The notes beneath the pieces were generated by a model. That model saw only the letters and a list, made by a program, of their open reading frames with translations. It did no database searches and was not told the origin of the DNA. 64,000 bases of DNA from Atractiella rhizophila (Eukaryota): the NCBI GenBank assembly GCA_021432655.1, contig MU271195.1, forward strand, positions 124,001 to 188,000, read 5' to 3'. The position numbers and the translations under genes are program-made. This document shows positions 1 through 64,000 of the stretch, one piece after another (position 1 is the first letter of the stretch; the number at the start of each line of letters is the position of its first letter).

Positions 1-1379
1 AAGGAAGACAGGACATTTGGTTCCTCGAAATATGGACGATTCGTTTGAGGGTTTATATCCTCTGCATAGATCGCAGGAGCGTTGCCTTCTTCGAACACCT
101 TGATCACGTATGCGTTTGCATTCGCACGGGGGAGGTCGATACCGTATTTCTTGAATTCTCGAACGAGGGAGTCTACTTGCTGGTGCTTCTGAAGTGTGCA
201 CTCTCTACCCCAGTGCCCCTCTTGCCCACAGTGATAGCACTGGTTCATAGATATCCTGAAATACCCCTTCGGAGACGTTCCATGCGGCCACTCTCCCCAA
301 TTCTTCAACGCACGAGCATTAGGCGCCATCCGATTTATCAACGGAGTCGAGGGAGGGGACTTAGTCGTGGACGAAGGCGTTGTCGGGGGAGAGTTGATTG
401 GAGTTCTCGCGTTTCGCCGATTTGATGGAGAAGAGATCCTCGATGCCAGACTTGGGGTTTGCGTCTTCTTAGGAGTTACGTTCGTCTTGCTCGTGTCCAT
501 CCTCGCCAACAGTGATACACCACCTTCTTCCATAGTTCCTCCCCTATTTCTCCTCGCTTGCTCTTCAGCAGTCAACTTCTGGACAACAGTTGCAAGATCT
601 GTCTGTACGACTCCTGTTGATGACAGCCATCTCCTAAGGGATTCGTCCAATCCGTTGATCAGGATTAAGGAAAGGAAAGCATCGGAGATGTTGATGGTCG
701 ACTGGGACTCGTTGAATTTCCTTCTCTTATCGTGCAGCTTGGCAATCCAATCTGAAAGGGCGAGATTACTGATGGAGTGCGAAAAATCGAGGAGATCTTT
801 GAGGAGATGCGCTGTATCAATGTACTGGGTTGTGTCGAATTTTTCTTTCAAAATCCTAAGCGCCTCTACCGGATCCTCCGTACTCTCAATAAACACCTTC
901 GCCGTGCTTCCCACTCCTTTCCTCAACAGCGCCATCGCAATCGCAGATTTTTGTTGATAGACCGTCAACGACCTCATGAAATTTTCGAGATCTTCCGCAG
1001 AGGCATTTATCGCAGGCACCGTTTCCCTTCTCTTCATCCTTGCTCATTGTTCAGTAAGCGTTATTCCCGTCTTTGGGTTCAACGGTTCTGTCAGGACACC
1101 CTCTGTGACCAGAGAAACTCCATAGGCTCGAAACCATTGGTCAATGAGGCGAAAGAAGGTCTGAGCGTTGTTATAATCGAGTTCGGGCAACGGATCATTT
1201 CCGATAAGGGATTGAATCGCGCTATTCATGTTGATCTCTCCTCCTCTCGCTGACGAAGAGACAGTAAAAGGAATTGACAACGAAGTTGTATCGAGAAGTG
1301 GAGGAGTTACGGTAGTTCTCGTAGGTATGTTAAGAGAATTGTCGGAGAGTTCTGGAGTGATTTCTTCTCTTTGAGACAT
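1..1379 (-). mobile_element. Ty1/copia-like LTR retrotransposon gag region (runs off the left edge; one in-frame stop)
   Basis: Minus-strand frame from ATG 1379 has one TGA at 1044-1046, then stays open to base 1. It encodes a CCHC zinc knuckle CYHCGQEGHWGREC (198-239) and a copia-like gag N-terminus (LDYNNAQTFFRLIDQWF). A PBS lies just upstream. Confidence 0.85.
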
Positions 1380-1440: not shown

Positions 1441-1486
1441 AAATAGAAATTGTGTGATTGATTTTGTATCACTGTCACTCAGTTCG

Positions 1487-1618
1487 CTGGTTTCCCCAAT
1501 CACGCGTAAGCAGCGAAATAAGAAACAAAGTGATTTATTACGGAGATTATGTGAAAACATACCTGGTTTCCCCAATCACGCGTAAGCAGCGAAATAAGAA
1601 ACAAAGTGATTGGGGAAA
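1487..1618 (-). repeat. 49-bp direct repeat pair plus 13-bp inverted repeat in the presumed 5' LTR; encloses a 76-nt GTATGT...CAG intron-like segment (1487-1562)
   Basis: Identical copies at 1487-1535 and 1563-1611. TTTCCCCAATCAC (1567-1579) pairs with GTGATTGGGGAAA (1606-1618). The LTR boundaries themselves are not resolved. Confidence 0.85.
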
Positions 1619-2276
1619 ATCTGAAATGGACCTGATGAGAGCTTTTATAGTCCCGGCTAAGTGGCGAAGTGTCCACATGAAAATAAACAGACCAAAACAC
1701 CGAACGCCATGCAAACAATGGGAAGGCTGCCAATACCAGTCAACTTCTAACAGTTTCGAGTCAAGGGGGTAATTGCCATAGTAACTTTATGATGAGCTTG
1801 ATCCCTACCTGAAAAAAAAAAATTTGTTAAAGAAGTGAAACAGCAGGATATTGCCTGAATGTTTCGCAGTGCGGACTCAGTACCATGATATTTTGTAAGC
1901 ATGAGGTAAGCCGCATCGTCGTTTGCAAAATCCTTCCTATTAGACAAGCCTAGACCTCACATAATCCTGTACCAAGACTCAGACCGAGCTCGGTGTCGGA
2001 AACTAGATGTCAACGTCTCCATTGCTGCATTGCGCTTTGAACTCTTCGAAAAGAGCCGTTCCTTAGTCCGGCAACACCACTCCAACGAGTGGAGCATCCT
2101 GGACAGCTTACACAGTCAATGTTCCTGATGCTATGCTATGGTTATGACACAGCGGCTGGGGAGAACTGAATACCTTCTCGAGGTATATAAGAGACGATAG
2201 TTGGCATTGGAGCCACAGCAATCAACCGACCAGCACCTTACATTCAAAAATCCCCTAAGAGCAAAACATCAGCAAC

Positions 2277-24216: not shown

Positions 24217-24300
24217 GCTCTCGTGGCCAAGTTGGCTAAGGCGCTCCCCTAGTATTCACGCTTCAGGGAGAGATCGCCGGTTCGAATCCGGTCGAGAGCA
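24217..24300 (+). tRNA. tRNA-Thr(AGT) with 10-nt intron (24255-24264)
   Basis: Acceptor GCTCTCG/CGAGAGC, D arm GCC..GGC, anticodon stem CTCCC/GGGAG with CT-AGT-A, T arm GCCGG-TTCGAAT-CCGGT, then TTTTT Pol III terminator at 24305-24309. Confidence 0.93.
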
Positions 24301-52428: not shown

Positions 52429-53115
52429 TGACATTGAAATGTATCACAGCCATTGTAACTATCACATCCAATGACAGCAGACTAACATTTTATAGGCAAG
52501 CCTCCTTACCATAGGAAAGTGATACTTTGTTGAGCACTACCCACATCTCACATCGTTTGATATCTGATAACATCATATACTCAATGTTTTTCAATTCAGC
52601 AGGCTCAAGATGGCTCCTCACCATTTCTCTTTTCTCCGTTCCATTCTTATACCACTCCGCTTCTTCAACCAGCCATTTTTTGCTTGATGACACACTAACA
52701 GTTATCAATACAGGTGTCTCTTCACCTTCAATGCCATTGCAGTTCTCACTCCACCTTTATCTCACTAGGTCCAATTCTCCTACCTTGATAAGTCTACAGC
52801 CTTCCTCTGTTCCCTCTTAATGTGCTGTTCTGCACTGTCTACACTCCTCCATGCAAGCTTTGTCAGATGCTCACTTGAGCTTCTAGGAGCATTAGATGGA
52901 AATATTAAATATTGGATATATTTTTATTCCTACTCATATTGTAAAATATAATATGTGATCATATTTTATTATGTAGATGTCAGGGCTGACACACTATAAG
53001 GCCCTTGATCTTCTTAGACACAGGTACTAGAAATCCCAGTTTTAGCATTGTTAAAGTAACCCATAGGGGACATCTGCATATATGGGATGCCAAACTATGG
53101 CTTTCCTCATTCTTT

Positions 53116-53184
53116 CAACTTCAGACATACCAGAAGAGCAACTTCAAACATACCGGTAGAGCAACTTCGGACATACCAGTAGAG
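53116..53184. repeat. Three tandem 23-bp repeats
   Basis: CAACTTCAGACATACCAGAAGAG / CAACTTCAAACATACCGGTAGAG / CAACTTCGGACATACCAGTAGAG. Confidence 0.8.
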
Positions 53185-54197
53185 GATAAGGCTCCTTGAT
53201 CTGAGGAATTAAATTGCCAAGTCTCCACCATCACATGATCATCGCAATAGACCATTATATCCCTTTCTCTATCACATCAGTGGACCTTAGGACTCAACCA
53301 CACGCTCTAGGAAGATGTTTCAGATGGAAATGGCTCCTAGTGGGTTGGAATTTGCTGGATTGAACAGTCTTGCTGCAGCAAATGATGCCACTATGGCTCA
53401 AGCAAGCCCTTGAGTGGATGGCAGACACTGGTGCAACTTCCTACATGTCTCCCCATTGTCACTGTTCAGAACCTACCAGAAGAAGGTTATTCCTATCAGG
53501 GTAGCAAGTGGAGAAGTTGATTTGGAGTGCTATTGGGAGCTTGATCTTTGAAGCCAAGCTGGGGGAGAAGAAGACCATCACTATCACCATTTCAGATGTC
53601 CTGCATGTCCCCAAGCTCTATGACAACCTCCTATCAGTCTTCAAGCTCACCATCTACAAGGAAATGAGGGTCTCCATCAGGCACAACAAGTTTCTCTTCT
53701 TGCAGGATCAAAAACTCTCCCTCACTGCCTGTAGACTACAAGAACGGAAGCATGGCTGGAATACTCAATGGGAACACCCTCCCTGCTCCAGAATTCGCTG
53801 GAAATACTTCTACACTGCCCATGGATGCTTCTCTATGGCATAGGAGACTTGGACACCTGAATTATGAGGACATTGAGCGTCTGAAGAGGAAGGCACTTGT
53901 GAATGGGATGATTTTTGACCTGGAGGATGACCCTATTTGCGAGCCATGCCTAGCTGGGAAGCAGCATAGGGTCTTCAACAAGTCAGCAGAGACTAGGGAG
54001 AAGGAAGTATTGGGTAGGATTAGCTCATATCTGCATGGACTTCTTCCAGTCACATCCAGAGAAGGATATCATTATTGGGTCAGCTTCATTGACGAAGCAC
54101 AAATCATTGCACAATTGTCTTCCTCAAGAAGAAATCAGAGGCCCCAGAACTCTTCAAGACCTTCAAGAATTGGGTAGAGAATTTCACTGGGAAGAAG

Positions 54198-54737: not shown

Positions 54738-55328
54738 TGTTAGGGCTGACACTATGTGCGGTCACCGACGGGCGATGCGTCTGTAGTGGAGATAAACCTA
54801 AGTGCATAATATGACATGAAGACTAACCTGTAGTGGAGATAAACCTAAGAGAATACTCTAAGGTCACCTCCACTACTCTCTGATCTATATATACAAGCGG
54901 AATAACACTGCCACAGAGCGTAGGGGAGAGCAGATGAAACATATAAGAGAACTAAAGGAGAAGTTGAGAGAATCTGATGCTGGATGGAGCTAGGGGACAG
55001 AGATTGGTGGTCAAAGATGATGATATTGATAGGGAAACACATACCTAGGGGACAGAGATTGGTGGTCAAAGATGATGACCGCCTAACCTGCCCCCTAGGG
55101 GGCTAAAACTCCGAAATGAAGCAAACACAACAAAGGTGGCTGACCACACAACACAAGACCACAAAATATAACACCTAATCCAACAGAAGTGACAGTGGGA
55201 TTACATGGAGTTAATAAGAGGAGGATAGGCACAATTGGGCTAAGTGGTAATGTAGGTGCAAATGGGCGAACGGGTGCCAATTCGCAGGGAACGCAAATGG
55301 GCAATTTGCGTAAGATGCAAACCTGACA
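54738..55328 (-). mobile_element. Solo LTR (365 bp without the nested insert), TSD GTTCG
   Basis: TGTTAGG...CCTGACA termini; GTTCG at 54733-54737 and 55329-55333; splits KKVYVR|DVARFDE of element A. Strand inferred from the splice module. Confidence 0.88.
54965..55185 (-). mobile_element. 221-bp solo LTR of the element-B family nested in the previous LTR, TSD GAAGT
   Basis: TGAGAG...TCCAACA with GAAGT on both sides; reverse complement of the LTR at 58335-58501 plus 55 nt. Confidence 0.92.
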
Positions 55329-56745
55329 GTTCGAGATGTTGCCAGATTTGATGAGAGAGAGATGCTCTGCAAGGTGAGAAAGGAGAAAATTATGTTGGAA
55401 GAGCCACAGGGACAACTTGATGAGTGGAAGCAGCATCAGGATCAGGTGGGAGATGGACAGAACAATGCTCCAGCCGCTCCTCCAGTCAGGATTTCGCTAG
55501 ACAACGACGAGGAAGATGAAGATGCATGGATTCAACAGCCAGGAGGAGCACCGCCTACACCTCAGGAACAACACAGACCACTTGGAATACAGTCTCCAAA
55601 TCGATTTCAGCCCCTGCAGGTCGTCAAAGAAGAAGAAAGAGAGGCGTCTCCAGACCCACTACAGCTTGTGCCTGAACGCTTTAGGACACCACCTCGTCAG
55701 TACACCATGCAGAGAGATCCTTGGACAGGAGTTCACATGCCTACATTCTCAGAGTCTCCAGATCCACTCCAGATCATCCCAACAATGCCAGATCGACCTC
55801 CTCCAGCAGCTACAACACCTCCTCCTGTCACCAGGTCTTCAAGAATTTATTCTACAAGTAGAGGACGTCCTGTCGACAGATTTAGGACCCTAGAAGCGCC
55901 TCAAAACAACGACAAAGGGTCAACAGACGAGCTTGGGATGTTGGTATAGGAATGTGACATCCTCACTGAGCCAGAGGCGATGGAATATGGCTATATGCTT
56001 GTCACAGAACATGCCATGAGTGCAGCAACAGGAGTAGAGGTCCCTCAGTCATATTCAAGAGCGATGGCAAGCCCAAATGCGAAGGAATGGCATGAAGCGA
56101 CAGTGAAGGAGATTCAATCTCACTTGGACAACAAGAGTTGGATTCTGGTCAAACCGCCTAAAGGAGCAAAAATCGTTGGTTCTCGATGGGTGTTTGCGGT
56201 TAAGAAGAAGTCGGATGGTTCTATCGAGCGCTTCAAGGCCAGATTCGTCATCAAGGGGTTCTCTCAACGCTCTGGATTCAACTACTTTGATACTTTTGCA
56301 TCAACGGTCAAATGGGCGACACTTAGGACGATTCTTTCGCTCGCTTGTGTCTTGGACATGGAGCTGGAGTCAGTGGATATCTCTACGGCATTAACGGCGA
56401 TATGGATGCAGAGGTCTATGCACAACAACCAGAAGGTCATCCACAGGGTCCTCCAGAGTACGTTCTCAAGGTAATCAAGGCCATCTATGGCACAAGGTAA
56501 GGAGGACGTCAATGGCAGAAGAAACTCGATAAGGAACTCGTTGATATGGGATTTAAGAAGATCAAGAGCGACTCTAGTCTGTGGATTTACTCGAAGGCGG
56601 ACATCAAAGTACTTGTCCCGGTCTTTGTGGATGATATTACGATCGCTAGCACATCAAAGGGTGCTGTAGAGGACTTCAAGAGGGAGTTAGGAAAGCGATT
56701 CAAACTCAGAGACCTTGGACCAACGGAATTCCTACTTGGGGTTCG

Positions 56746-56954
56746 TGAGAGAATCTGATGCTGGATGGAGCTAGGGGACAGTGATTGGTGGTCAAAGATG
56801 ATGACATTGATAGGGAAACACATACCTAGGGGACAGTGATTGGTGGTCAAAGATGATGACCGCCTAAACTGCCCCCTAGGGGGCTAAAACTCCGAAGTGA
56901 AGCAAACAAAACAGAGGTGGCTGACCACACAAACATATAACACCTAATCCAACA
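56746..56954 (-). mobile_element. 209-bp solo LTR of the element-B family inserted in the RT of element A, TSD GTTCG
   Basis: GTTCG at 56741-56745 and 56955-56959; splits FLLGVR|IRRDR. Confidence 0.92.
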
Positions 56955-58031
56955 GTTCGTATTAGGAGAGATAGAAAGCGAAGAATGATGTGGTTGGATC
57001 AAGAACAGTATGTCAAGGACCTTCTGGAACGCCAACAGATGGATGACTGCAACCCTGTCCTCACTCCTCTCAACATTGGACACGGTCTCAGCAAGCAGGA
57101 CTGCCCTCAGAAAAAGGAAGAACAAGAAGAAATGCGCACAATCCCTTACAGCAACGTTGTTGGCTCCATGATGTACTTGGCCATCTCCACTCGTCTGGAT
57201 ATTGCTCACGCAGTCTCTGTCCTTGGAAAGTACCTCTCTAATCCTGGAAAGAAGCACTGGGAAGCGGCCAAGCATCTTCTATGGTACCTCAAAGGCACTC
57301 AGAACTTAGGAATTGAGTATTCTGCAACTGGTTTTGACCTCAAGCAACCTTTTCACACTTTCTGCGATGCAGATTTTGCTGGGTGCAAGGATACTGGACG
57401 TTCTACGGGAGGCTATCTCCTCAAGATAGGCAATGGAGTGGTCAGTTGGAGCAGCAAACTACAATCCCTCGTTGCCCTTTCCACAACTGAAGCAGAATAT
57501 GTCTCAGGAGTCTCAGCTGGCCAAGAAGTCGTCTGGCTAAGGAATCTTTTAGAAGAAATTGGCTTCGCTCCTCAAGGTCCTACTCCCCTCTTCACAGACA
57601 GTAGCAGCGCTCTCCAGGTATCCAAGAACCCTGAGCACCATGGTCGAATGAAACACCTGGACCTTTGCTTTTATTGGCTCAGAGATGTTGTTGAGATGGG
57701 CAAGATCAGTCCAGTCTTCTGTCGGGGTGTCGATATGCCAGCAGACCTCCTCACCAAGACACTTCCAGTAGCTAGCGTGGATAAGTTTCGACTTATGATG
57801 GGTTTGCGCCCCTACCCAAGTGTATGAGGCAGTTATGGGGCGCAATAAAAAAATCCTTTCCCCCTCTGTGGAGTTATAAGACGCCGCTTTTAGCGGTACG
57901 AAGACTTTTCATCTTCTTTTCATGCAAAACTAATATGCTTTCTGCTTTATATCGAGTATACATTGTATGAATTTGGTGGGAGATTCTCTGGATGTGGTGG
58001 GAGCGTCAAGAGACAGCTGCCCAGGTGGTAG

Positions 58032-58166
58032 TGTTAGTTGTAGTGTGTTGTTTTGGTCATCTGCCTCTTATGACTCATATGAGTCATCACTATGTAGTTT
58101 AGTTTTGCCTAGGGGTGTTGGTGCTCATTATTGACCACCAACTACTCCTAGCCTTAGATCCTTACA
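58032..58166 (+). repeat. 3' LTR of element A (135 bp)
   Basis: TGTTAG...CCTTACA after a purine-rich tract; homologous copies at 60880-61026 and 62371-62510 (reverse). Confidence 0.85.
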
Positions 58167-58334
58167 CATTTTGGCTATGCAAAGACAGTGGCTTTGGTTT
58201 CTCAGTCATTACTGGAAGAACCTTACAAAAGATGTCAGAAGATATGTTGACTCCTGTCCGAGCTGCCAGAGAAATAAAGCTGTAAATCAGAACCCATTGG
58301 AGCTTTCAGACCCTCATGTATACCACCATCAAGA
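58167..58334 (+). mobile_element. Ty3/gypsy integrase zinc-binding (H2C2) fragment
   Basis: HFGYAKT...YWKNLTKDVRRYVDSCPSCQRNK, with a frameshift. Confidence 0.8.
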
Positions 58335-60879
58335 TGTTGGATTAGGTGTTATATTTCATGGTGTTATGTTTGTGTGGTCAGCCACCTCTGTTTTGTTTGC
58401 TTCACTTCGGAGTTTTAGCCCCCTAGGGGGCAGTTTAGGCGGTCATCATTTTTGACCACCAATCTCTGTCCCCTAGCTCCATCCAGCATCAGATTCTCTC
58501 ATGGTAGCGAGAGAGGTGGCTAGTGATTGACAGATCAGTTTTGCCACCCACTTGGTTGAAAATTTTGATCACTCAGCCATCCGTTGTCCAATCGGTTTGA
58601 AACGTTGGGATCATAAACGAGACCCCCTTACGCCTATATCCACCCATTTCTACGAAGATCGGACGATCCAAACTCGAATTTTATCACCATGGCCGAAGAA
58701 AGTAAAATTTTGATTACCCCCCTTGGAGAGAAGAACTATGGCACCTGGTGCATTGATATGCAGGAGGAATTGATGCGAAAGGGGTTATGGGAGATAGTCT
58801 CTGGAGTGGAGACAAAACCAGAAGATTTGAAGGAACAAAAACAGTGGCAAAAGGACAGCTCCAAAGCGGCTGGGATCCTGTTCCTTAGCCTAGAAGCGAC
58901 CCAGAAAGCCCATGTGGTCTCTGTCCTTCAAGATCCAGTCAAGATCTGGTCTACCCTTCAAGAAATCCACCAACAGAAGCGCTCCTCAACTCGTTTCACT
59001 GCCCTCAACACCCTCCTTGCCATCCAGAAGAAGGAAAACGAATCTCTCATCACCCTGTGTGCCAGAAGCGACCAGCTGCTTCTAGACTTCACCAACACGC
59101 TTTCCAAAGACTATTCCCTTGATGATTTGAAGGAAGATCTCCAATCCTTCGCTCTCATTCGCTCCTTAGGCCCAGAATACACTAGTTTTGTCCAGAACTT
59201 AACCCTGATGACATCCACCGACCTCCAATCGATCAAACAAGCATTCTACTCGATCCAAGCCACCAAGAACTCGGAGGAAGCCATCTCCAACACTCAAATG
59301 GCAAATCAGGAGATCCAAGCCACCAAGAACTCGGAGGAAGCCATCTCCAACACTCAAATGGCAAATCAGGCATCCAGCAGCAACAGAGGACGAGGAGGAT
59401 GGCATCCCAGAGGTGGCAGAGGTGGTGGAAGAGGAGGAACTCGAGATTTTTCGCAATCTGTGTGCAACTACTGCCACAGAAAAGGCCACTTCATCTCCCA
59501 CTGCCCAGAAACTGCTTCTGGACGCAATAGGATCGAGTTGGAGAAGTACAGATCGAAGTATGGCAAGCTGGAAGTGGTGAAGGAAGCCAAAGTCGAAGGG
59601 GGAAAGCCAGAATTCGCTGGAGAGACAAGTTATGCAGCGGTAGATGATACCATTAGTCGCCAGAAAGCTGGGACTGACTAGATTATTGATACAGGAGCAA
59701 CTTCATCAATGACTCCACATTCCCACTTCTTCAAATCCTATCAAAAACACGTTGTACCCATCAGAGTTGCAAATGGAGAAGTGATCTGGTCTACTGGGAT
59801 AGGAGAAGTGGTGATTGAGGCGAAATTGGAGGATAAAAAGTCGAAGAAGGTCACCATTCACAATGTCCTACACGTCCCCAAATTGTGCAGCAATCTCCTA
59901 TCTGTTTTCAAGCTCACAATCTTCGAAGGTGTAACTGTGACCATCATTGGGAGCAGAGTACGCTTCCTCAAGGCTGGAAATCCCTGTTTCACAGCGACAG
60001 TTGATCACAGGAGAGGAAGCATGAATGCCATCATTGATGGAAGAACACTCATGGCCTCAGAATTCGTTGCACACGCCTCCTCTCCCCTCTAAACGCTTCC
60101 CTGTGGCACAGGAGACTTGCCCACTTAAATCATGAAGATGTAAAGCGAATGCTGAAGAAAGGACTCGTGAAAGGAATGATTCTGGACTCAGAGGACCCTC
60201 CTGACCCCATCTGTGAGCCCTGCATCGCTGGGAAGCAGCATAGGATCTACAACAAGGCTGCAGAGAATAGGGAGACGGAAATTTTAGGGAGGATCAGCTC
60301 AGATCTTCATGGACCGCTCCCAGTTGCCTCAAGAGAAGGATTTCGCTATTGGGTGACGTTTATAGACGAGGCAACAAGTCACTGGACGATTGCTTTTCTC
60401 AGGAAGAAGTCAGAAGCACCTCAACGCTTTAAGGAGTACAAAGCTGTGATGGAGACCTTGACTGGAAGGAAAATCAAGAGATTCAGGGAGGACAAAGAAG
60501 GCGCCTACTCCTCAACAGATTCGAAATTGTGGCATCCAGCATGAGCAAACGATTAGAAACTCTCCTCATCAAAATGGGAAAGCAGAGAGAGCAAATAGGA
60601 CGATTCAGGAGGGTATGGTGGCGATACTGGAGGAATCTGGTTTGCCACTATTCCTCTGGCCTCACCTTGCTTCGGCTGTTGTTCACATCAGGAACAGATC
60701 CCCCTCTTCCTCCATCCATCACTCCATTCCCTACACAAAATTAACAGGACAATTGGTCGATATTTCACATTTCAGAGCTCCACTGCCTATGTCCAAGTTC
60801 AGAAGGAAGAAAGACAGCACAGTCTGGCATCCCATACACGCAGATGTGCCTTTATAGGTTACTCTACCAACGCTAAAGG
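58335..60879 (+). mobile_element. Decayed, 3'-truncated Ty1/copia element B: 167-bp 5' LTR (58335-58501), PBS (58502-58513), gag (58689-59681), PR, INT
   Basis: TGTTGG...CTCTCA then TGGTAGCGAGAG; gag NYGTW, CNYCHRKGHFISHC knuckle, 60-bp tandem duplication in gag; IIDTGATSSMT; LWHRRLAH; SDLHGP; stops and frameshifts. Confidence 0.93.
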
Positions 60880-61026
60880 TGTAAGGATCTAAGGCTAGGA
60901 GTGTTTGGTGGTCAATAATAAGCACATTGGAGAAGTATAGAGAGACATACCTAGGAGTGGTTGGTGGTCAATAATGAGCACCAACACTCCTAGGCAGAAC
61001 TAAACTACATAGTGATGACTCATACG
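60880..61026 (-). mobile_element. Truncated LTR of the A/C family abutting element B integrase
   Basis: Begins TGTAAGGATCTAAGG, the reverse complement of the 58166 end; 56 nt longer internally than the 135-bp copy. Confidence 0.85.
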
Positions 61027-62370: not shown

Positions 62371-64000
62371 TTTAAGGATCTAAGGTTGGTGGTCGTAATA
62401 ATGAGGCATTGATGACTTCTAGAGGCAGAACTAAACTACATAGTGATGACTCATACGCGTCATAAGAGTCATAAGAGGCAGATGACCAAAACAACACGCT
62501 ACAACTAACACTCCCACCTGGGCAGCTGTCTCTTGATGCTCCCACCAAATCCAGAGAATCTCCCACCGAATTCACACAATGTATACTCAATATAAAGCAG
62601 AAAGCATATTAGTTTTGCAATGAAAAGAAGAGGAAAAGTCCTCGTACCGCTTAAAGCGACGTCTTATAACCCCACAGAGGAGGAAAGGGATTTTATTGCG
62701 CCACATAACTGCCTCAGACACTTGGGTAGGGGCGCAAACCCATCATAACTCGAAACTTGTCCACGCTGGTGACTGGAAGTGCCTTGGTAAGGAGGTCTGC
62801 TGGCATATCGACACCCGGACAGAAGACTGGACTGATCTTGCCCATCTCAACAACATCCCTGAGCCAATAAAAGTGAAGGTCCAGGTGTTTCATTCGACCA
62901 TGGTGCTCAGGGTTCTTGGATACCTGGAGAGCGCTGCTGCTGTCTGTGAAGAGGGGAGTAGGACCTTGAGGAGTGAAGCCAATCTCTTCTAAAAGATTCC
63001 TTAGCCAGACAACTTCTTGACCTGCTGAGACTCCTGAGACATATTCTGCTTCGGTAGTAGAAAGGGCAACGAGGGTTTGCAGTTTGCTGCTCCAACTGAC
63101 TGCTCCGTTGCCTATCTTGAGGAGATAGCTGTAATACGAATAACATAAATGAGCTTCTTCGTACTTTATGAGTCATTTTCTTTTGTCGCAGTCTTGCTTC
63201 CGTGACCTCGTTTCTCTCCCTCACACACAACCACCATCTTCTCTGAGCTTGCCTGTATTGAGGTATAGCTAGTGCTGTGTGTGAGGTGAGTACTCGTTAA
63301 TTTCTACCTTTATTGTGCTTTGCTCATCGGGCACTTGTTTAAGGGCACATTTCATCTCCCTTTCCGAGTTCGAGGTATTTTATTGTTCTAGAACACTCAA
63401 AGAGGGTGTGTTATTTCCTTTTCACCCTCTTCTCGCTTATTCATGTCCGTTCTCTTTCGTAGGGCTGTGCCAACAGCCTTGTCCGCTCTCTGTTAGCCCT
63501 CGCGGACTCTTTGGGTGTTTTAGGTACGCATACTTCATTGTTACTTATGCTTCTATGTTCCTTTTCTTATACTATGCAAACCATGTTTTAGAACCCATTA
63601 TTTCGAACTCACCGCCGCTAAACGAGTCTTGCCAGCTTTCACTTAGTCGCATTATAATAGCCTCCCGTAGAACGTGCAGTATCCTTGCACCCAGCAAAAT
63701 CTGCATCGCAGAAGGCGTGAAAAGGTTGCATGAGGTCAAAACCAGCTGCACAATACTCGATTCCTAAGTTCTGAGTGCCTTTGAGGTATCGTAGAAGATG
63801 CTTGGCCGCTTCCCAGTGCTTCTTTCCTGGGTTAGAGAGGTACTTTCCGAGGACAGAGACTGCATGAGCGATATCTGGACGAGTGGAGATGGCCAAGTAC
63901 ATCGTGGAGCCAACAACGTTGCTGTGAGGGATTGTGCGCATTTCTTCTTGTTCTTCCTTTGTCTGAGGGCAGTCCTGCTTGCTGAGACCGTGTCCAACAT
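62371..64000 (-). mobile_element. Ty1/copia element C (RT-RNase H, 3' UTR and 3' LTR 62371-62510), same family as A; runs off the right edge
   Basis: Closely similar, inverted, to 57080-58166 (MRTIP..NVVGS.MYLAIST..DIAHAVS, CDADFAG). Confidence 0.93.
63130..63656 (+). mobile_element. 527-bp solo LTR inserted in element C RNase H, TSD ATAGC
   Basis: TGTAATACGA...TCGCATTATA inverted termini (terminal CA apparently mutated to TA); ATAGC at 63125-63129 and 63657-63661. Confidence 0.85.

Follow-up and report, generated by a model that had tools for sequence, protein, structure and literature searches.

Intron-like duplicated modules beside hairpins in Ty1/copia LTRs: candidate self-regenerating mini-introns in a fungus-like host

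Introduction

R-region hairpins of the HIV-1 type assist strand transfer. In HIV-1, U1 binding together with these hairpins tells the LTRs apart and guides the first strand transfer, as may also happen in the LTRs described here; in contrast to these LTRs, HIV-1 has its donor beyond the LTR, owes the asymmetry to position rather than, as proposed here, to a hairpin completed by U3, and has no LTR-internal intron. The 5′ poly(A) site of HIV-1 is suppressed by the major splice donor, which lies downstream of the 5′ LTR (PMC3694450, in the part cited).

In foamy virus, the RNA is refolded by 13 nt of U3, so that the donor in R is masked and polyadenylation can take place at the 3′ end (Schrom et al. 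2013, PMC3694450, same part). The predicted resemblance extends to a strong donor a few tens of nucleotides past the start of R in both LTRs, which in foamy virus is upstream of the poly(A) signal. As is predicted here, a stretch of ~13 nt at the end of U3 that only 3′-LTR transcripts contain pairs so as to mask this donor, and the expected outcome is that the 5′ poly(A) site is suppressed and the 3′ one used. In contrast, the foamy virus acceptors are far inside the genome, and the cited part of the paper describes neither an LTR-internal intron nor a duplicate of the first exon. Foamy virus is, moreover, a retrovirus in a mammal host, whereas the copia LTR module presented here is prediction throughout.

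In split-intron retroviral vectors (Ismail et al. 2000, as described in PMC3182074, in the part cited), the 5′ LTR acquires a copy of the donor that was placed in the 3′ LTR, and the intron exists only because reverse transcription copies parts of the LTR, as would be the case here. Unlike our LTRs, these vectors are engineered, their acceptor is outside the LTR and, within that part of the source, they have no exon duplicate or homology-guided landing. The Arabidopsis element EVD, of the same Ty1/copia superfamily, produces a spliced subgenomic gag RNA, and U1 snRNP blocks its premature termination (PMC5580714, in the part cited); introns thus work in copia elements and U1 controls RNA 3′ ends. 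The EVD intron differs in lying in the protease region, not in the LTR, and is kept because the unspliced RNA is the genome (same part). The original prediction made on the present DNA was aware of no description of the scheme it proposed, and a literature search for such a layout found no description.

Results

A repeated, intron-like unit in Ty1/copia LTRs

The window, the whole 64-kb stretch of DNA analyzed, carries Ty1/copia retrotransposon LTRs; the host is intron-rich and fungus-like. The LTRs have TG..CA ends and 5-bp target-site duplications (TSDs) GAAGT, GTTCG and GTTCG. The sequence TGGTAGCGAGAG stands after the LTR at 1440 and 58502 as well as in the metagenome contig L001, and is a primer-binding site (PBS) of the TGGTAGCG.. 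type, which we take to match initiator tRNA-Met. Pfam identified Retrotran_gag_2, gag_pre-integrs and RVT_2 in the elements, with gag and then integrase before reverse transcriptase; the left-edge gag ORF (6–1043) contains zf-CCHC and Retrotran_gag_2.

Five LTR copies, representing four LTR families, contain a module that reads in element sense C1(..AG)|GTATGT or GTTAGT, spacer S, and C2(..AG), with 15–46 nt remaining to the LTR end. C1 and C2 are the two repeat copies, and S plus C2 constitutes the candidate intron. The features are:

1441–1752, minus strand: left-edge Ty1/copia 5′ LTR, starting TGTTAG at 1752; PBS and gag follow
1440–1427, minus: PBS-like TGGTAGCGAGAGGT after the left-edge LTR
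1642–1649, minus: TATAAAAG box of the left-edge LTR, read directly, 38 nt upstream of the first base of C1
1567–1618, minus: left-edge hairpin, -20.1 kcal/mol
1563–1611, minus: left-edge C1, 49 nt, ending in AG, 100% identical to C2 (copies at 1487/1563, period 76); proposed R and first exon
1487–1562, minus: left-edge candidate 76-nt intron; S 1562–1536 (GTATGT start), C2 1535–1487 (CAG end)
54738–55328, minus: solo 365-bp LTR, TSD GTTCG, split by a B solo LTR; orientation inferred only from the TATA–hairpin–donor order
54886–54893, minus: TATATATA of the 365-bp LTR
54830–54876, minus: hairpin of the 365-bp LTR, -29.1 kcal/mol; 5′ arm upstream of C1, 3′ arm C1 itself
54849–54828, minus: C1 of the 365-bp LTR (22-nt copies at 54781/54828, period 47)
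54781–54827, minus: candidate 47-nt intron of the 365-bp LTR; S 54827–54803 (GTTAGT start), C2 54802–54781 (CAG end)
54965–55185, minus: B-family solo LTR, TSD GAAGT, nested in the 365-bp LTR
55044–55099, minus: B hairpin, -34.9 kcal/mol
55078–55045, minus: C1 of this first B solo LTR
54990–55044, minus: B candidate 55-nt intron; S 55044–55024 (GTATGT start), C2 55023–54990 (TAG end)
56746–56954, minus: second B-family solo LTR, TSD GTTCG, within a copia pol gene; candidate intron 56771–56825, C1 56826–56860, hairpin 56825–56880 (34/35-nt copies at 54990/55045 and 56771/56826 in the B family, period 55)
58095–58166, plus: 3′ end of an A/C-family 3′ LTR, one-copy form; hairpin, one C (about 58121–58151), then 15 nt to the LTR end
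58335–58501, plus: B-family 5′ LTR, one-copy form, with C joined directly to the U5 part
58502–58513, plus: PBS-like TGGTAGCGAGAG after the B 5′ LTR; gag ORF from 58689
60880–61026, minus: truncated A/C-family LTR, two-copy form; C1 60981–60951, candidate 56-nt intron 60950–60895 (31-nt copies at 60895/60951, 29/31 identical, period 56)
60996–60948, minus: A/C hairpin, -32.6 kcal/mol

The one-copy B and A/C LTRs (58335–58501, and ending at 58166) both lie inside the span named in the original prediction.

Repeats were recovered wherever they had been predicted in the B, A/C, 365-bp and left-edge LTRs. As anticipated, copy 1 ended in AG at all five loci (minus strand), followed by GTATGT in four and GTTAGT in one, and copy 2 ended in AG followed by non-GT sequence (5/5). 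Between copy 2 and the LTR end or PBS, 15–46 nt were expected, and 15, 25, 43 and 46 nt were measured. The families had been thought to share little or no similarity; B and A/C are instead sisters, with internal regions 73–80% identical and an 11-nt core plus CCTAG in common, and three independent lineages remain. The left-edge and B elements have gag proteins with no BLASTP similarity to each other, and the module therefore extends across deep copia lineages.

Direct repeats spaced by up to 120 nt fell into six families across the window. Four of these (five loci) are the module, and they alone have a spacer; the other two (59252/59312 and 41045/41108) are coding duplications arranged back-to-back. 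S is 21–27 nt long and specific to each LTR family. Homology between the copies breaks off precisely at AG|GT, and C2|U5 corresponds to an exon–exon joint. It is this break that argues against a plain tandem duplication, the earlier argument, that GT follows only copy 1, being circular as worded.

The candidate introns measure 47, 55, 55, 56 and 76 nt, and all five have GT..AG ends and a near-consensus 5′ splice site. In the host part of the window, GTNNGT hexamers of any kind occurred at 302 of 100,000 strand positions, and we estimate the probability that the spacer would start with one by chance in all three independent lineages at about 3e-8. The YTRAY-like motifs TTGAC, CTTAC and TTTAT, seen by eye in C2, are candidate branch sites, which would be expected 10–25 nt before the AG. 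Judged in silico, the unit appears to bear all the sequence marks of a short intron.

The module was not seen in other copia LTRs: L004 and L008, which were read, showed no donor-like site after the TATA box, and L003 and L005–L007, checked for short-range direct repeats only, showed none of the module type. L002 breaks off too early to show it.

A predicted hairpin at the first copy

The 13–17 nt just upstream of C1 are predicted to pair with the 3′ half of C1 up to AG|GT (z -2.2 to -6.8). For B, A/C, the 365-bp LTR, the left edge and a fifth context, the C1 contexts gave z = -5.28, -6.61, -6.11, -2.23 and -6.84, with 0, 0, 0, 6 and 0 of 200 shuffles folding as well. C2 contexts of the same length did not fold (z = +0.45, -0.37, +2.01, -0.83 and -0.09, same order). 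In the B hairpin, a 13-bp outer stem joins the U3 end to the final 12 nt of C1 and the G of GT. At the left edge, the 5′ arm is 13 nt (7 nt upstream of C1 and its first 6 nt); it pairs with the 3′ part of C1 and pairing stops 4 nt before AG|GT. The donor adjoins the stem, rather than lying within it, in two of the four families. One-copy LTRs keep the hairpin (z -3.25 for B, -4.11 for A/C).

Covariation was assessed on two two-copy LTRs per family. In the B alignment, a G/T change in the 5′ arm (column 109) faces a T/A change in C1 (column 140), the pair being G.U in one LTR and U-A in the other. This one compensatory change favors a structure at the RNA level. The hairpin had been noted in the original prediction, its relation to C1 had not; that relation points to a donor-masking switch like that of foamy virus (PMC3694450, in the part cited).

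TATA boxes stand upstream of C1 in two families, by 38 nt at the left edge and 44 nt in the 365-bp LTR, and in these the transcription start is likely to be near the left edge of C1. The donor would then be 22–49 nt past the presumed start. A canonical AATAAA occurs in one of the four families (left edge, 1539–1534), across the S/C2 junction and downstream of the donor.

Proposed mechanism

The reading that we put forward, tentatively and as something short of probable, is that C1 is R and first exon, S plus C2 is a mini-intron, the U3 end masks the donor only in 3′-LTR transcripts, and C2 is the landing site of strong-stop DNA. The U3 end would supply the TATA box and then the 5′ arm of the hairpin. 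C1 would begin near the cap site and end at a strong 5′ splice site. The 47–76-nt intron would derive its branch site and AG from a 3′ part that copies C1, and a short U5 (15–46 nt) would follow.

Transcripts from the 5′ LTR would lack the 5′ arm, leaving the donor open to U1, and the mini-intron, with its uATGs and probably a poly(A) signal, would be neutralized or spliced out (step 1). At the 3′ LTR the U3 end would be transcribed, the hairpin would hide C1 and the donor, and the RNA would stay unspliced there and be polyadenylated in or just past C2 (step 2). Minus-strand strong-stop DNA, which would end with the complement of C1, would meet a hairpin-locked C1 and a free C2 and land on C2, rebuilding C1–S–C2 in both new LTRs and overwriting C2 with C1 (step 3). 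Landing on C1 instead would give one-copy LTRs (step 4).

We infer all four steps. Steps 1 and 2 would be, by analogy, the foamy virus answer to the problem of two identical LTRs, and steps 3 and 4 develop the idea of the original prediction, in which the putative self-regenerating step is plausible. Should transcription start upstream of the 5′ arm, both LTR transcripts would contain the hairpin and the asymmetry would fail.

Splice-like signals and a possible switch without splicing

Six of six host introns joined in contigs of the RNA-like run X3 measured 41–56 nt. The predicted match to host introns holds only in part. The sizes are compatible, the 76-nt candidate being longer, but none of these six RNA-supported introns opens with GTATGT, and host DNA shows no enrichment of this hexamer (16 occurrences against 11.6 expected). 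Among the joints listed (15 of 107), none was at a module GT/AG pair; one-copy DNA loci would mimic junction reads. Contigs of X3 cover position 54803, within S, so that unspliced RNA or DNA carry-over exists.

This coverage of S, like the geometry of a hairpin beside a donor, would suit a foamy-virus-like switch without productive splicing. GTATGT or GTTAGT would then be a U1 snRNP site only, suppressing premature polyadenylation in 5′-LTR transcripts, the hairpin would mask the site in the 3′ LTR, and C2, unused as an acceptor, would be a by-product of misaligned strand transfers in R. We regard this as unlikely. It leaves three things unexplained: that in all four families the duplication stops precisely on the exon side of AG|GT, that YAG and branch-like motifs always occur in C2 at an intron-like distance (47–76 nt), and that C1 and C2 change in parallel.

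Parallel change of C1 and C2, and one-copy LTRs

The B-family T/A change in column 140 (C1) recurs in column 195 (C2), and the A/C change at column 317 (C1, T/C) is mirrored at column 373 in C2; both mirrored changes would arise by chance with an estimated probability of about 3e-4. C1 and C2 are identical in four of six two-copy LTRs (49/49, 22/22, 34/34 and 35/35), the other two being 29/31 identical and one position apart. C1 and C2 also have substitutions in common when LTR copies are compared whose alignment shows differences at 8 of 207 sites. In silico, C1 and C2 appear to evolve in concert, as expected if strand transfer rewrites C2 from C1.

In the one-copy LTRs of B and A/C, C is joined exactly to U5, which is the exact "spliced" product; the alignments support reading them as an alternative landing product or a spliced product. 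The two-copy A/C form was also found in independent data, namely L001 and a DNA contig of run X1 at 58150. Contigs of X1 DNA further contained variant arrays, one of which lacks C2, while another, of the 365 family, has an additional C–S′ unit.

One-copy LTRs and such arrays are compatible with a real intron in elements that package their RNA in unspliced form only, as retroviruses and plant Ty1/copia elements do. The exon-1 copy would then be a fossil, left in each lineage by a single aberrant end-to-end strand transfer, one-copy LTRs would be dead ends from occasionally packaged spliced RNA, and nothing would be regenerated. This is the standard route of intron retention in retroelements: retroviruses and Ty1/copia elements keep introns because their genome is the unspliced RNA (PMC5580714, in the part cited). 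The premise of the original prediction, that an intron in a retroelement must be lost at reverse transcription, is accordingly wrong, and no regeneration is strictly needed; otherwise that interpretation is partly supported in silico by the intron marks, the TATA boxes, AATAAA, the concerted change of C1 and C2 and the one-copy LTRs. Nevertheless, retention alone is in our view an improbable account. It requires the same rare accident in three independent lineages and predicts drift between C1 and C2, yet most pairs are identical and substitutions are shared.

Readings without a role in splicing

The absence of GTATGT from the six host introns and its lack of enrichment mean that the motif may serve another purpose. 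The module could in that case consist of R-region tandem duplications left by reverse-transcriptase slippage, the TAG..TATGT..T-rich stretch being a protein site or a 3′-end or termination signal, presumably of yeast type, and the hairpin a promoter-proximal palindrome such as a bZIP site. GGTATGT also occurs in another LTR relic (52976–53303), in a plain 3 x 23-nt tandem array with neither C–S–C layout nor hairpin. The A/C U3 has palindromic TGACTCA-like sites, which we assume to be meaningful in this sense, and sense and antisense folds are about equally stable in four of the six distinct LTR families folded (in the 365-bp LTR the sense fold is better by 5.8 kcal/mol). Even so, we consider this explanation very unlikely. 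Slippage has an arbitrary phase, yet the phase is AG|GT at all five loci with C2 ending in AG; the 365 family has GTTAGT, not TATGT; and the G.U to U-A change in the stem argues for structure in RNA.

In the Rogers model, an intron is reportedly gained by tandem duplication of an AGGT-containing segment, and its 5′ end must also repeat the start of the downstream exon. The module is similar in that the candidate intron closes with a repeat of the upstream exon's end, and in that splicing would restore the unduplicated sequence. It departs from the model in S, of which the window, including 50 kb of host genes, contains no second copy at up to 5 mismatches, and which is unlike the U5 part. Introner-type introns, which are borne by transposons, are dispersed through genes in many copies and have terminal repeats and a short target-site duplication; here the duplicated block is 22–49 nt and S is family-specific and absent from the host genes.

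Implications

The mini-intron reading has a fuller form that we hold to be doubtful: a retroelement would keep a promoter-proximal spliceosomal intron within its LTR, the 3′ half of which is a copy of the first exon. Even cDNA of spliced RNA would then land on this copy and rebuild the intron in both LTRs in each cycle, and the U3-completed hairpin would set both the choice of poly(A) site and the landing site. With such a layout, the element could govern its RNA ends and restore its intron at every round of copying. If true, this would be a new, replication-coupled way of intron maintenance, and a mechanism of concerted evolution within the LTR that is convergent or ancient in at least three copia lineages.

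Repeat modules in the Ty1/copia LTRs

According to Pfam scans of 44 long ORFs, ordinary eukaryotic genes occupy the stretch between about 2.4 and 47 kb (among them DEAD-box helicases, COX15, a CLASP protein and a Sec7/BIG protein), and Ty1/copia pieces lie at both window ends. For the RNase H region of the copia element, relatives with up to about 55% identity were found among Agaricomycete fungi and many metagenome proteins. The only Rfam match in the window was a tRNA, a possibly intron-bearing 84-nt tRNA-Gly(CCC) gene (24217-24300, plus strand) that abuts the end of an opposite-strand COX15-like ORF.

Ty1/copia features of the window
1-1043, minus strand: gag, left end (Pfam)
1752-1441: left-edge 5' LTR, then a TGGTAGCG-type primer-binding site and gag
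53.6-64 kb: gag, pre-integrase and RVT_2 domains, right end (Pfam)
54738-55328: solo 365-bp LTR, TSD GTTCG, interrupted by a B solo LTR
54965-55185: B solo LTR inside the 365-bp LTR, TSD GAAGT
56746-56954: second B solo LTR, TSD GTTCG
End at 58166: A/C 3' LTR
58335-58501: B 5' LTR, with primer-binding site and gag
60880-61026: A/C LTR, truncated

Direct repeats spaced by up to 120 nt formed six families in the 64 kb; two were back-to-back coding duplications and four, at five loci, were LTR modules. All five loci and four repeat families of the original prediction proved to be present where it had placed them. Read along the minus strand, a module consists of repeat copy 1 (C1), a unique spacer (S) and repeat copy 2 (C2), in that order, with S and C2 forming the candidate mini-intron. 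C1 ends in AG at 5/5 loci. S is 21-27 nt long and starts with GTATGT at four loci and GTTAGT at one, and C2 ends in AG with 15-46 nt left to the LTR end.

Since GTNNGT hexamers of any kind fill only 302/100,000 strand positions in the host part of the window, chance was excluded as the origin of the spacer starts and dropped as the source of the module. An assembly artefact was dropped because independent contigs carry the module. A Rogers-type duplication, a transposon-borne intron and the copying of S from another place in the window were considered and dropped. The LTR module is real, non-random and structured.

The modules had been assigned to four unlike families. B and A/C are instead sister families, with a common 11-nt core in the repeat and integrase regions 73-80% identical, and gag shows no similarity between the left-edge and B elements; the independent lineages are therefore three. 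For the solo 365-bp LTR, the orientation is probable from its architecture, the one other support being a sense fold better by 5.8 kcal/mol; sense versus antisense folding gave a small difference except for this LTR and L002, an unrelated copia contig. The gag ORF of the B element holds a perfect in-frame 60-nt tandem duplication (59252-59370, plus strand; 2.0 copies, 100% identical), which resembles the outcome of recent slippage or template switching. The A/C U3 has inverted palindromes of the TGACTCA/TGAGTCA type immediately upstream of the hairpin described below (58057-58095, plus strand; 62440-62480, minus strand), which we take to be possible bZIP (Gcn4/AP-1-like) sites.

A predicted hairpin tied to copy 1

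In the predicted folds of every family, a stem forms between the 3' half of C1 and the 13-17 nt directly upstream of C1 (the 5' arm, at the end of U3), and it reaches or adjoins the AG/GT boundary. L001, a metagenome contig with an A/C LTR, was folded alongside the window copies. The hairpin is retained in folds of one-copy LTRs.

Predicted hairpins at C1, with the z-score of a C2 window of the same length
B: -34.9 kcal/mol, z -5.28; C2 window, z +0.45
A/C: -32.6 kcal/mol, z -6.61; C2 window, z -0.37
365: -29.1 kcal/mol, z -6.11; C2 window, z +2.01
Left edge: -20.1 kcal/mol, z -2.23; C2 window, z -0.83
L001: -32.6 kcal/mol, z -6.84; C2 window, z -0.09

In the left-edge and 365 LTRs, a TATA box precedes C1 by 38 nt and 44 nt, respectively; from this spacing, transcription would likely begin close to the left end of the duplicated block, within the 5' arm or past it. 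The left-edge LTR has an AATAAA across its S/C2 junction, and no canonical poly(A) hexamer was found in the other LTR families.

Seven contaminant Ty1/copia loci (L002-L008) were found among prokaryote genome contigs; as eukaryotic contigs in bacterial- or archaeal-labelled MAGs, they represent eukaryote contamination of the bins. L002, filed under a bacterial MAG and with 51% protein identity, carries at 1493-1567 a TATA box followed by a hairpin (z -3.03) ending at CAG/GCAAGT, a GC-type donor-like site; the contig ends 12 nt further on, before any repeat could be visible, and no second copy was found in its source genome. The repeat layout was not found in L004 and L008, which were read, or in L003 and L005-L007, which were scanned for repeats. 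Queries with the pol protein and a 15-sequence alignment found no relatives in viral contigs.

An LTR relic at about 52976-53303, similar at its end to the 365-bp LTR, contains a simple tandem array of 3 x 23 nt (53116-53184, minus sense) about 75 nt downstream of TATAAT. Each unit carries GGTATGT, and the relic has neither the C1-S-C2 layout nor a significant fold (z +1.18). The motif may thus have another or an additional role.

Donor sites and transcripts

Joined contigs of X3, a sequencing run that behaves as RNA, spanned six short GT..AG segments (41-56 nt) in host genes, which shows the host to be intron-rich with very short introns. The LTR donors had been thought to match those of host introns. 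This did not stand for the donors: none of the six confirmed introns starts with GTATGT, their donors are heterogeneous, and GTATGT is unenriched (16 seen versus 11.6 expected). Judged by sequence, the LTR donors are near-perfect predicted U1 matches, unlike typical host donors.

Among the 15 of 107 joints listed, none fell at an LTR module, a count that covers contigs only and is uninformative either way. S is covered by X3 contigs, which fits unspliced 3' LTR RNA and also DNA carry-over.

One-copy forms and concerted change

In the B 5' LTR and the A/C 3' LTR, exactly S and C2 are absent and the single repeat is joined to the U5 part. Such an LTR would be the expected product of splicing, of landing on C1 or of inter-repeat deletion, the DNA being alike for all three. 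The two-copy A/C form is independently present in L001 and in a DNA contig of run X1; X1 contigs of the abundant 365 family also include a form with an extra repeat-spacer unit and one lacking C2. A 24-nt A/C anchor retrieved at least one locus from the metagenomes. In L001, positions 180-320 (minus sense) read pol C-terminus, A/C LTR and primer-binding site, representing either two elements with one common LTR or an assembly collapse of 3' and 5' LTRs.

Of 207 aligned sites, 8 are unlike between the B solo LTRs. One difference in C1 and one in C2 occupy the homologous position with the same bases, and a third, in the 5' arm, pairs with the variable C1 site, changing G.U to U-A. Likewise, in A/C, the C1 of L001 departs from that of the window copy at a single position, and C2 shows the mirrored change. 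As S is homologous between copies, the duplication is older than their divergence. Taken with the parallel changes, this indicates that C2 must have been re-copied from C1, or C1 from C2, as far as such small numbers of aligned differences allow.

Discussion

We tentatively favor, as the most likely reading, an RNA switch that masks the donor and includes a mini-intron inside the LTR, although we would put it at somewhat below even odds. The layout agrees with the experimentally shown logic of foamy virus. There, both LTRs carry the major donor within R, and U1 binding to it blocks the 5' poly(A) site, while 13 nt of U3 refold the 3' RNA, mask the donor and let polyadenylation proceed (PMC3694450). 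The modules here add to this a candidate complete mini-intron within the LTR and a copy of exon 1 at the intron 3' end.

In the self-regenerating step, strong-stop DNA would land on C2 rather than C1. Such landing would fit the homology break exactly at AG/GT, the parallel C1/C2 changes and the free C2. The step is plausible and testable, if rather doubtful. The original premise, that an intron is lost at reverse transcription, was wrong: copia elements and retroviruses retain introns since the unspliced RNA is the genome (PMC5580714), so regeneration is possible but not required. Engineered split-intron vectors (PMC3182074) are the nearest analog of an intron made by LTR copying. The original prediction was aware of no precedent for such a module, and a search of the openly available literature found no account of an intron inside an LTR that carries a duplicated exon.

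An LTR element has two long-standing difficulties: of its identical LTRs only the 3' one should direct polyadenylation, and in hosts that depend on introns a transcript lacking them is expressed poorly or treated as foreign. An example comes from Cryptococcus, in which RNAi is recruited where the spliceosome stalls on transposon RNAs (PMC6232588). If the module works as proposed, it would solve both difficulties in about 100 nt. It is directly testable, with clear predictions on the TSS, poly(A) site, junction reads and marker transfer, and could be a compact design for intron-keeping retroviral or retrotransposon vectors. If true, the proposal would extend the donor-masking principle of foamy virus to fungal retrotransposons, and the rebuilding of an intron through strand transfer would have its first natural example.
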